From Escherichia phage teqdroes: a DNA stretch of 64,000 nucleotides. The stretch is from sequence record NC_054932.1. One strand, given 5' to 3'. The position numbers and the translations under genes are program-made. Below, one piece after another: positions 60,740 to 64,000 of the stretch (its first letter is position 1; each line of letters opens with the position of its first letter). The notes beneath the pieces were generated by a model that saw only the letters and a program-made list of their open reading frames with translations, searched no databases and was not told the DNA's origin.

Positions 60740-60743
60740 GTTA

Positions 60744-60772
60744 AGGACTCCTTCGGGAGTCCTTTTTATTTT
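60744..60772 (+). terminator. rho-independent terminator
   Basis: AGGACTCC-TTCG-GGAGTCCT followed by a T-run; same hairpin as at 7445. Confidence 0.8.
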
Positions 60773-61694: not shown

Positions 61695-61982
61695 ATGTTT
61701 ATGACTACTTATTTTGATACCCGCAAAAATTTCTGTGAAGTGGTTTTCTCTAAGGCACCTAAAGACCTTCCTGCTCATTTGCAGCCTACTAGTGAATCGA
61801 TTAAAAACTATGTTAATATAGTCTGCCCTTTAGAGTTCCGTACTGTAAATGGCCGCGATACTTTAGCTATCACTAAACTTAATCGTGAAATTGACATTGA
61901 CCCTTCAATTGCGCGTGAAATTAACATTTCTGATATTGGCGGCGGTAATGTTAAATCGCATGGTTTTCAGATGAGGTTCTAA
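61695..61982 (+). CDS. hypothetical protein (95 aa)
   Basis: ORF. Confidence 0.45.
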   Translation: MFMTTYFDTRKNFCEVVFSKAPKDLPAHLQPTSESIKNYVNIVCPLEFRTVNGRDTLAITKLNREIDIDPSIAREINISDIGGGNVKSHGFQMRF

Positions 61983-62179
61983 TGAAATTCTTTTTAGGTC
62001 AAACTGTTGAATTAAAGGGAGTTGGTATACCTGGATTAATTTCTAAGGTTCTACCTCCATTTAAATGGAGTGGTATTCAAATAAAAGAGGCTTATATTGT
62101 TTCCTGGGTAGATGGAAATGAAGACCTTCGTATGGGTGATGAATTATCTCCTATCTACGGATTAAAGGAATTAGTATGA
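61982..62179 (+). CDS. hypothetical protein (65 aa)
   Basis: ORF. Confidence 0.4.
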   Translation: MKFFLGQTVELKGVGIPGLISKVLPPFKWSGIQIKEAYIVSWVDGNEDLRMGDELSPIYGLKELV

Positions 62180-62382
62180 ATATAATTAATAAGATTTTTG
62201 GAATTCAGTACATTAAGGTCACATATAAAGTAACAGATAAAAATCCGTATACTGATGAACACGAAGAACCACAAGTTAAGTCTATTATATTAGAAAAGGA
62301 CCCTAACTGGCCAGTTGAATTTCGTCTTCCTTGCTATGGTCATTGGGCTGATGTTGAAATTATAAGTATTGAAAATGTCTGA
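62176..62382 (+). CDS. hypothetical protein (68 aa)
   Basis: ORF. Confidence 0.4.
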   Translation: MNIINKIFGIQYIKVTYKVTDKNPYTDEHEEPQVKSIILEKDPNWPVEFRLPCYGHWADVEIISIENV

Positions 62383-62833
62383 GCTAGAGATAAGAAGCAA
62401 TTTTAGATGGCCATCATGTGCATTAAGTAATTTCGCCCAATGGCCTTTCGTTATGGATGGTATTCAATTTGGAGGTCTTGAAGGATTCCTCCAAGGGTGT
62501 AAGGTGAAAAATGTTGAACAACAACGTCGTATATTTGGGTTATCCGGGCTTGCCGCCCAACAAGCTGGAAGGTCTTATGCTAGAGCTCAGGACCGTGGGA
62601 CCCTCTTCTGGCTTGGAGTTCCGTTTTCAAGATACTCCCCGGCGTGGAAAGAATTATACACAAATGCATATTTTGAAGCAGCGATCCAAAACAAGGGCTT
62701 TCGTGATGCATTACAAGCCTCGAAAGGAAAAGTTTTGAAGCACAGCATGGCTAGTGGTCTAACAAAAGATGATACAATACTAACCGAAGCTGAATTTATT
62801 GATGTGTTAAATCTATTAAGAGACTCTCTATGA
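62375..62833 (+). CDS. NADAR/YbiA-like (DUF1768-type) domain protein
   Basis: Motif ALSNFAQWPF…DG…F…EGFLQGCK resembles the YbiA/NADAR signature as I recall it; assignment is by motif only. Confidence 0.45.
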   Translation: MSELEIRSNFRWPSCALSNFAQWPFVMDGIQFGGLEGFLQGCKVKNVEQQRRIFGLSGLAAQQAGRSYARAQDRGTLFWLGVPFSRYSPAWKELYTNAYFEAAIQNKGFRDALQASKGKVLKHSMASGLTKDDTILTEAEFIDVLNLLRDSL

Positions 62834-63666
62834 AGCCTACTATTTTAACTGATATTGATGGAGTATGTTTAAGCTGGCAATCAGGCCTTCCTTATTTTGC
62901 TCAGAAATATAATCTTCCGTTAGAACATATTTTAAAAATGATCCAAGATGAGAAATTTATTTCTCCGGGTAAACTCTTTAATTGCGATGAAGAACTTGGC
63001 GTCAAGTTAATTGAAAAATACAATCGTTCAGATTTTATTCGTTATTTGTCTCCATATAAAGACGCCCTGTGCGTAATTAACAAATTAAAAGAAGATTATA
63101 ATTTTGTAGCTGTTACAGCGTTGGGTGATTCTATTGACGCTCTGTTGAATCGTCAATTTAATTTGAATGCTCTTTTTCCTGGTGCCTTCTCAGAAGTAAT
63201 GATGTGTGGTCATGATTCTTCAAAAGAAGAGTTGTTCAAAAAGGCAAAAGAGAAATATAACGTAATTTGTTATATTGACGATCTCGCTCACCACTGCGAT
63301 CATGCGAGTGAAATATTACGTGTTCCTGTGTATTGGATGGCTCGAGGGGAACGTGACAGTATTCCAAAAACCGCTCAGCGAGTTTATACATGGAACGATG
63401 TAGAGAATAAGCTTTTTTCACCAAAGGAAAATAAAGAAAGTTTTGATAGTGAAAAAGCTATAAAAGATGTAATTGAAAAGATGATTAAAAATGATTCTTT
63501 TCGTTGGAACACTACCTGGAGAACTCCTGGATTTAATCCTTATAATCCATATCATCCATATCAGACACATCCGTTTCAGACATGGAACTATATTAAACCT
63601 GGTGGCATAGAGTATTTGTATAATAGACCTACTAGTGGTGATAATATTTTCCAAGGAGCATTCTAA
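62830..63666 (+). CDS. HAD-superfamily hydrolase-like protein (putative nucleotidase/phosphatase)
   Basis: N-terminal DIDGV (HAD motif I-like) and downstream YIDDLAHH; 278 aa. Confidence 0.45.
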   Translation: MKPTILTDIDGVCLSWQSGLPYFAQKYNLPLEHILKMIQDEKFISPGKLFNCDEELGVKLIEKYNRSDFIRYLSPYKDALCVINKLKEDYNFVAVTALGDSIDALLNRQFNLNALFPGAFSEVMMCGHDSSKEELFKKAKEKYNVICYIDDLAHHCDHASEILRVPVYWMARGERDSIPKTAQRVYTWNDVENKLFSPKENKESFDSEKAIKDVIEKMIKNDSFRWNTTWRTPGFNPYNPYHPYQTHPFQTWNYIKPGGIEYLYNRPTSGDNIFQGAF

Positions 63667-63935
63667 TGTTTGTTGTTCACACTATTTATGAAAATGAAGG
63701 TAATACTACACGTGATTACGGTCACGTAAATCAATTTTTTAGATGCAATCCAGAATTCCGAGCTCAAAAAGACGAACGAATTTTTAAAAAATGTGTAGAG
63801 CAAGGTTTCATTTACGTCAAACACTGGATGCAAGGAAATAAAGTTAGAACCACGTACCATAGGTCTTTGACTGAGCTTAATGATGAATTGATTTATAATA
63901 GAGCTGTAAACCAAACTCTAAAGGATGAACAATGA
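63666..63935 (+). CDS. hypothetical protein (89 aa)
   Basis: ORF immediately upstream of the ligase gene. Confidence 0.45.
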   Translation: MFVVHTIYENEGNTTRDYGHVNQFFRCNPEFRAQKDERIFKKCVEQGFIYVKHWMQGNKVRTTYHRSLTELNDELIYNRAVNQTLKDEQ

Positions 63936-64000
63936 TTCTTAAAATTCTGAACGAAATAGCATCTATTGGTTCAACTAAGCAGAAGCAAGCAATTCTTGAA
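63932..64000 (+). CDS. 30: DNA ligase gp30, N-terminal fragment (3'-truncated by window end)
   Basis: MILKILNEIASIGSTKQKQAILE… matches the T4 DNA ligase N-terminus. Confidence 0.85.
   Translation, partial: MILKILNEIASIGSTKQKQAILE

Follow-up and report, generated by a model that had tools for sequence, protein, structure and literature searches.

Near the end of a 64,000-nt stretch of the genome of Escherichia phage teqdroes (NC_054932.1; hereafter, the window), two open reading frames (ORFs) at positions 62375–62833 and 62830–63666 encode a NADAR-like and a HAD-like protein close to a DNA ligase gene. Do they constitute a single anti-DarT or DNA-repair module, as a first-pass annotation of the sequence had proposed, or do they simply lie side by side? 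We identified the two ORFs as genes 30.3 (adfN) and 30.2 of a T4-like phage, and consider, with a probability of about 0.8, that they are independent early genes and neighbours by chance, namely adfN and a HAD phosphatase that stands outside the anti-DarT1 mechanism.

Both ORFs occur on the plus strand and contain the motifs by which they had been recognised, ALSNFAQWPF...EGFLQGCK at residues 16–43 of the first product and DIDGV at residues 8–12 of the second. The first product matches Pfam family PF08010 (Phage_30_3) at 2e-70 and the second PHROG 420 at 1e-93; judged by these matches, 30.3 and 30.2 are real conserved genes, not chance ORFs. The window itself aligns as that of a T4-like phage (Tequatrovirus): its final 3.2 kb show 96–98% identity to many Tequatrovirus genomes, and the gene order of the T4 minus strand is reproduced (cd, 31.2, 31.1, 31, rIII, 30.9...30.4, 30.3, 30.2, 30.1 and 30, the DNA ligase gene). 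The ligase gene is indeed nearby, as had been noted, but it is not directly adjacent, for gene 30.1 intervenes, and only its first 23 codons fall within the window; the gene continues past the window end and is annotated as DNA ligase in relatives.

DarTG1 phenotypes and linkage of genes 30.3 and 30.2

A saturated T4 transposon library has been screened on E. coli with DarTG1 (HIDEN-SEQ preprint, 10.1101/2025.11.20.689424), and we used the gene-level values of its Extended Data Table 6 (sheet S6, control versus DarTG1). Insertions in 30.3 were eliminated on DarTG1 (28 sites; log2 fold change −7.25; adjusted p 0), whereas those in 30.2 were neutral (71 sites; −0.12; p 0.61). Likewise, 30.1 showed no significant change (21 sites; −0.01) and was neutral in every transposon sequencing (Tn-seq) condition read. 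In the reference library, gene 30.2 carried insertions at 72/72 sites, indicating that it is dispensable under laboratory conditions, and was also neutral in M9 versus LB. Since the window protein is 98% identical to that of T4, these values indicate that 30.2 is not required for counter-defence against DarT1; in the published T4 data, resistance depended on one of the two genes, not on both.

A joint module would have the HAD protein process, for example, released ADP-ribose or a repair intermediate, with the ligase sealing the DNA. The organization of the genes lends this idea some support, because the ATGA shared by the stop of 30.3 and the start of 30.2 implies co-expression, and AdfN is reported to need a further T-even factor for full activity. 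However, purified AdfN de-ADP-ribosylates DNA alone, and its chemistry leaves no nick to seal; as the DNA backbone remains intact, there is no obvious mechanistic role for the ligase.

To evaluate linkage, we compared loci on viral contigs, 78 of them built around a homologue of gp30.2 and 79 around one of NADAR. A NADAR gene was found within 8 kb of gp30.2 in 37 of the 78 loci, spanning several genera, and in each of these it preceded gp30.2 on the same strand, with gaps of −48 to +1216 nt. This arrangement favours a module, but the other 41 loci contained no NADAR in that interval, gp30.2 appeared in only 18 of the 79 NADAR-centred loci, and nine near-complete genomes carried both genes 54–69 kb apart. 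Conversely, DNA ligase was present in 73 of the 78 gp30.2 loci, usually immediately downstream, and the linkage was kept even where the order was inverted (L077–L079). The linkage between NADAR and 30.2 is thus facultative, and the stable neighbour of 30.2 is DNA ligase, not NADAR. Each of the two genes was found in about 1,450–1,500 of 50,697 phage genome records, with near-identical counts over matching host genera, as a module would predict; both are near-core genes in Straboviridae, so that co-occurrence at the genome level is uninformative. Additionally, the whole cd-31-30 block is syntenic in T4-like phages, which makes adjacency alone weak evidence, and we found no conserved NADAR-HAD linkage beyond this general synteny. 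No neighbour cluster occurred in more than six of the loci where NADAR lies away from gp30.2, and PADLOC returned no match for either protein.

A divergent 166-kb viral contig (L109, 6736–8456) carries a distant gp30.2-like HAD gene (MSKFLLTDIDGCVLNW...) upstream of a NADAR gene, with two small ORFs between them. Although this order reverses that of T4, the linkage is retained, which slightly favours some association.

Taken with the neutrality of 30.2 on DarTG1, linkage in fewer than half of the loci (37 of 78) and the distant locations in nine genomes speak against the proposed NADAR-HAD module beside the ligase. We regard a joint anti-DarT or DNA-repair module as very improbable and, for DarTG1, as already largely refuted.

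The NADAR protein AdfN

Gene 30.3 is adfN, which has already been published for T4, and the NADAR part of the locus adds nothing new. The suggestion that a phage NADAR reverses the guanine ADP-ribosylation installed by DarT was correct, but this was published in 2024–2025 for this very gene, both in vitro and in vivo. T4 30.3 was renamed "anti-DarT factor NADAR"; purified AdfN alone stripped ADP-ribose from DarT1-modified DNA, and T4 without adfN was sensitive to DarTG1 (Johannesman et al., Nat Commun 2025, PMC11825919). In the same study, mutants E36A and K43A were defective, defining the catalytic Glu and Lys by mutagenesis, and an RB69-type truncation that loses the C-terminal helix lowered activity (PMC11825919). 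Guanine-specific de-ADP-ribosylation by T4 gp30.3 was shown independently (Toxins 2024, PMC11125620), together with a marker of the phage NADAR clade, a His in place of the Glu or Asp of the last strand.

The window protein corresponds to T4 AdfN in gene and position, and retains E36, K43, H123 and the C-terminal helix (residues 138–151). It is full length, with neither an N-terminal extension nor the RB69-type frameshift, and thus carries the features of the phage clade described in both studies (PMC11125620, PMC11825919). Its lone difference from T4, I125M, introduces the majority residue of the family at this position, and would not be expected to alter function. Across 31 aligned homologues, the most distant at 35% identity, E36 and H123 were invariant and K43 was conserved in at least 90%.

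Profile and fold searches agreed with the NADAR assignment, which is proven experimentally for T4 AdfN (99.3% identical). In sequence searches of PDB, the family profile matched E. coli YbiA best (E = 0.004), with the catalytic Glu and Lys aligned. The AlphaFold2 (AF2) model of AdfN was of high confidence (predicted local distance difference test, pLDDT, 94; predicted template modelling score, pTM, 0.89), and its top three Foldseek matches in PDB were YbiA (2b3w; E 2.9e-5, template modelling score 0.67), PnNADAR from Phytophthora (8bau) and the Geobacter lovleyi NADAR (8bat), whereas all matches below these three NADAR structures had a probability of 0.08 or less. The predicted structure therefore places AdfN in the NADAR superfamily (YbiA fold). 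In Pfam, the single window sequence matched only PF08010 and not the NADAR/DUF1768 model PF08719; the homologue P0183 was assigned to both.

Window AdfN has in common with YbiA and the DarG1-type NADAR of G. lovleyi the predicted fold and the catalytic Glu and Lys, and DarG1-type NADARs perform the same chemistry on guanine-ADP-ribose as phage AdfN. Nevertheless, phage AdfN lacks the N-terminal extension of DarG1, and its last strand contains His, as opposed to Asp in DarG1 and Glu in YbiA. Unlike DarG1, it is also an orphan without a cognate toxin, and does not protect uninfected cells from DarT1. AdfN would hydrolyse the N-glycosidic bond that joins ADP-ribose to guanine in DNA, erasing the replication-blocking marks written by host DarT1 and allowing the phage to grow on DarTG1 hosts. 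Guanine-ADP-ribose hydrolysis and DarTG1 resistance have been shown for T4, and we infer both for the window protein from its 99.3% identity.

Many database adfN alleles from T4-like phages are truncated or fragmented, with products of 86–126 residues versus 152 (P0104–P0107, P0113, P0116, P0117 and P0151), and resemble the RB69 frameshift described in the literature. These short alleles suggest that this counter-defence gene is frequently lost. For instance, in locus L013 (7636–8001) the NADAR ORF is shortened while the adjoining 30.2 is intact. A different discrepancy in length concerns the T4 NADAR construct, given as "gp30.3; residues 1-208" in the methods of PMC11125620, although the product has 152 residues in both T4 and the window. 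AdfN covers only positions 126–272 of the 296 in the PHROG 652 profile, and the homologues P0131 and P0133 (201 residues) have N-terminal extensions.

A predicted HAD phosphatase and its possible substrates

We found no functional or biochemical study of gp30.2 in the searchable literature, although some depositors label its homologues as "5' nucleotidase" or "phosphatase"; to our knowledge, it is among the roughly 100 T4 genes without a function. Its motifs and predicted fold now allow a description as a capped HAD-type phosphatase of NT5C-like character, so far uncharacterised, whose gene keeps a stable linkage to that of DNA ligase among T4-like phages.

Direct searches of Pfam, NCBIfam and PDB with the single gp30.2 sequence returned only noise, and we thus used family alignments. 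An exhaustive profile search recovered 1,460 cluster representatives. Among 36 homologues with 33–74% identity, the conserved unit comprises the N-terminal ~195 residues, where D8, D10, G11, K132, D150 and D151 were invariant and T96 was conserved in at least 90%, so that gp30.2 displays all four HAD catalytic motifs (I, DxDx[TV]; II, S/T; III, K/R; and IV, DD). The AF2 model was confident over residues 1–190 (pLDDT >90) and showed a Rossmann-like HAD core, with a five-helix insertion (residues ~14–73) between strand 1 and the core that forms a C1 cap; confidence was lower from residue ~197, with disordered segments at 225–231 and 242–278. The HAD assignment made at first from the DIDGV motif alone was hence borne out by alignment, residue mapping and predicted structure. 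The combination of a D-x-D and a DD motif is that of Mg2+-dependent phosphoryl transfer, not of dehalogenase chemistry.

Within the superfamily, the signals point to the NT5C group. The best PDB match of the family profile was mouse cdN (E 0.012), with W16-x-S18-G-L aligned to the F-E-S-G-L that follows motif I in cdN. Recurrent Pfam signals in the 36 members were limited to Hydrolase (9), NT5C (7) and HAD_2 (6). Window gp30.2 itself had no HAD match in Pfam (PF00702 or PF13419) at E ≤ 1, and remained below the threshold of NT5C (PF06941); the 9 signals for PF00702 and the 7 for PF06941 (best E 1.2e-4) were also sub-threshold. Nevertheless, two distant members of the family do pass, P0300 for Hydrolase PF00702 (28.8 versus 26.4 bits) and P0346 for NT5C PF06941 (25.5 versus 24.8). 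The 5'(3')-deoxyribonucleotidases cdN and mdN (PF06941; 2jao, 2i7d and 4yih) and the deoxyribonucleotidase-like protein 3bwv from S. epidermidis have a HAD core and C1 cap as in the gp30.2 model, and gave the most compact structural matches in addition to the best sequence match. Both NT5C and gp30.2 contain a D-x-D-G-V motif I, an aromatic residue at +8 followed by S-G-L, and a DD motif IV. Identity is, however, only 16–21%, and gp30.2 bears an extra tail of ~80 residues, largely disordered, that the NT5C enzymes lack.

From these affinities, gp30.2 would be a Mg2+-dependent HAD phosphatase with D8 as nucleophile and D10 (Asp+2) as general acid/base, whose alpha-helical cap would enclose small substrates. 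Given its closeness to the 5'(3')-deoxyribonucleotidases, its most likely role in the nucleotide metabolism of the phage would be to dephosphorylate a (deoxy)nucleoside monophosphate or another small phosphoester of that kind.

The link to ligase, the tightest conserved linkage of 30.2 and often with abutting genes, could alternatively reflect an end-healing function, in which gp30.2 would be a polynucleotide 3'-phosphatase, like the HAD domain of the T4 polynucleotide kinase PseT, and ready nicks for the ligase. PseT, too, is a HAD phosphatase encoded by a phage, uses DxD chemistry and is connected in function with a ligase, and weak matches to PHROG 415, "polynucleotide kinase", were obtained with window gp30.2 (0.003) and with the homologue P0256 (0.0005). 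However, gp30.2 shows no specific similarity to PseT past the superfamily motifs, and has a C1 cap, whereas the phosphatase domain of PseT has no cap and works on the ends of polynucleotides. We consider this function improbable.

Another improbable alternative is that gp30.2 acts not on deoxynucleoside monophosphate pools but on a molecule derived from NAD or ADP-ribose (ADP-ribose, ribose-5-phosphate, nicotinamide mononucleotide or ADP-ribose-1''-phosphate); it is just as doubtful that it would thereby serve the ADP-ribosylation biology of the phage generally (Alt, ModA/B, AdfN and AdfM). Early expression of phage NADARs together with ADP-ribosyltransferases has been reported, and 30.2 lies between the NADAR gene and that for the Alt RNA-polymerase ADP-ribosyltransferase, found in relatives ~1.7 kb downstream of the ligase start (L001, 7834–9204; L002, 1–503). 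Nevertheless, gp30.2 has no sequence or structural signal for such substrates, its sequence affinities being to NT5C, and neither the lack of a phenotype of 30.2 on DarTG1 nor its facultative linkage to NADAR agrees with such a role. The position of Alt in relatives places a phage ADP-ribosyltransferase and an ADP-ribose-removing NADAR within ~4 kb of each other.

Within the tail of gp30.2, conservation is limited to GGIEYLYNRPT, a possible short linear interaction motif with the family pattern G-[IT]-E-Y-[LWY]-x-x-[QR]-P-T, which several genera keep while the remainder of the tail varies or is missing. At its core, IEYLY is similar to the tails with which T4 gp43 (SLDFLFG), gp55 (SLDFLYEAND) and gp33 (TLDFLL) bind the gp45 clamp, all of the form xLDFL[FYL]. 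This likeness is no more than suggestive; a weak possibility is that gp30.2 is a nucleotide phosphatase that this motif would anchor to the replisome by binding the clamp.

A recognisable extra domain was found in only one member of the gp30.2 family, the metagenomic P0256 (591 residues), with a HAD of the gp30.2 type at residues 386–586 and an N-terminal region that matches PHROG 24943, "DNA polymerase" (E 1.7e-34). A GDLDIII...QVDLIF pattern in this region looks like that of a Pol-beta-type nucleotidyltransferase. The N-terminal region had no support from Pfam or PDB sequence searches, and we give the fusion little weight because it is a single metagenomic sequence without such support.

Gene 30.4 and the surrounding gene string

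A useful by-product of the DarTG1 data is gene 30.4, the only significant gene besides 30.3 in the sheet (log2 fold change −1.79; adjusted p 0.014; 10.1101/2025.11.20.689424) and, although not discussed in the source papers, a data-supported candidate for a T-even potentiator of AdfN. AdfN(T4) did not rescue uninfected cells and only partially rescued T5 and Bas25, and it probably depends on "an as-yet unknown T4 factor" that may stabilise or localise AdfN (PMC11825919). We also considered gp30.2 as this missing factor, for it is coupled to AdfN, co-distributed with it and absent by name from T5-like records; we rejected it on the Tn-seq values.

The depletion of 30.4 could reflect either a helper of AdfN or a polar effect through translational coupling. 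In favour of a dedicated partner encoded by the overlapping 30.4, rather than by 30.2, that would stabilise or localise AdfN, 30.4 was neutral in M9, and the further-upstream genes 30.6 (−0.30) and 30.7 (−0.19) were not depleted on DarTG1. The HIDEN-SEQ authors argue that polar effects are rare (10.1101/2025.11.20.689424), and insertions were tolerated at 21/21 sites in 30.1, which likewise overlaps an essential downstream gene, that for ligase. Homologues of gp30.4 are also restricted to the T-even/Mosigvirus group, where AdfN(T4) works fully, and always overlap the NADAR start; their simple absence outside this group means that relocated NADARs are not discriminating. On the other hand, adfN starts within 30.4, and the 20 nt before its ATG contain no Shine-Dalgarno-like sequence (GGAG, GAGG or AGGA), whereas the ligase start has its own AAGGA. 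Stopping translation of 30.4 should thus lower AdfN through lost coupling, which predicts just such a partial effect (−1.79 versus −7.25). Additionally, the values are at gene level only, and the authors leave 30.4 undiscussed. A helper role for gp30.4 is hence a tentative possibility, well short of an even chance.

The positions of these genes and of the elements discussed above are given in Table 1.

Table 1. Genes and sequence elements at the 30.4-to-ligase end of the window.
Feature	Position	Strand	Residues	Remarks
Gene 30.4	62176–62382	+	68 aa	66/68 identical to T4 gp30.4; PHROG 2042, function unknown
Gene 30.3 (adfN)	62375–62833	+	152 aa	Stand-alone NADAR; 151/152 identical to T4 AdfN
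adfN catalytic codon	62480–62482	+	E36	
adfN catalytic codon	62501–62503	+	K43	
adfN phage-clade codon	62741–62743	+	H123	
ORF 30.3'	62511–62738	+	75 aa	Another frame inside adfN; annotated in T4; 73/75 identical to T4
Gene 30.2	62830–63666	+	278 aa	Predicted HAD-superfamily phosphatase; 273/278 identical to T4 gp30.2
gp30.2 predicted catalytic core and alpha-helical C1 cap	62830–~63415	+	1–~195	
gp30.2 motif I	62851–62865	+	D8-I-D10-G-V12	
gp30.2 motif II		+	T96	
gp30.2 motif III		+	K132	
gp30.2 motif IV		+	D150-D151	
gp30.2 tail motif GGIEYLYNRPT	63601–63633	+	258–268	Only conserved element of tail
Gene 30.1 (DUF3045)	63666–63935	+	89 aa	Pfam PF11243 at 3e-64; between 30.2 and ligase
Gene 30, ATP-dependent DNA ligase	63932–64000	+	First 23 codons	23/23 identical to T4 gp30 N-terminus

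By their overlapping stops and starts, genes 30.4, 30.3, 30.2, 30.1 and ligase form a translationally coupled string. The 30.4 stop (62380–62382) lies beyond the adfN ATG (62375), an overlap of 8 nt; 30.3 and 30.2 have in common an ATGA at 62830–62833, 30.2 and 30.1 a TAATG at 63664–63668, and 30.1 and ligase an ATGA at 63932–63935. No terminator-like site was found on the plus strand across 61960–64000, indicating that the genes are not separated transcriptionally, and a promoter scan was no better than chance (16 found versus 13.9 expected).

ORF 30.3' differs from its T4 counterpart by two amino acid changes, F33S and F59S. The one change in AdfN, I125M, falls outside the span of 30.3', so that both changes in 30.3' must be silent in the adfN frame. 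Selection on the adfN frame alone would be expected to leave this pattern, which makes the status of 30.3' as a gene doubtful.

Further upstream, just 3' of gene 30.9, there is a strong terminator-like hairpin on the plus strand (60743–60764), with a 9-bp stem, AAGGACTCC-TTCG-GGAGTCCTT, followed by a T run; it probably marks the boundary of a transcription unit, ahead of the string that runs from 30.8 to ligase.

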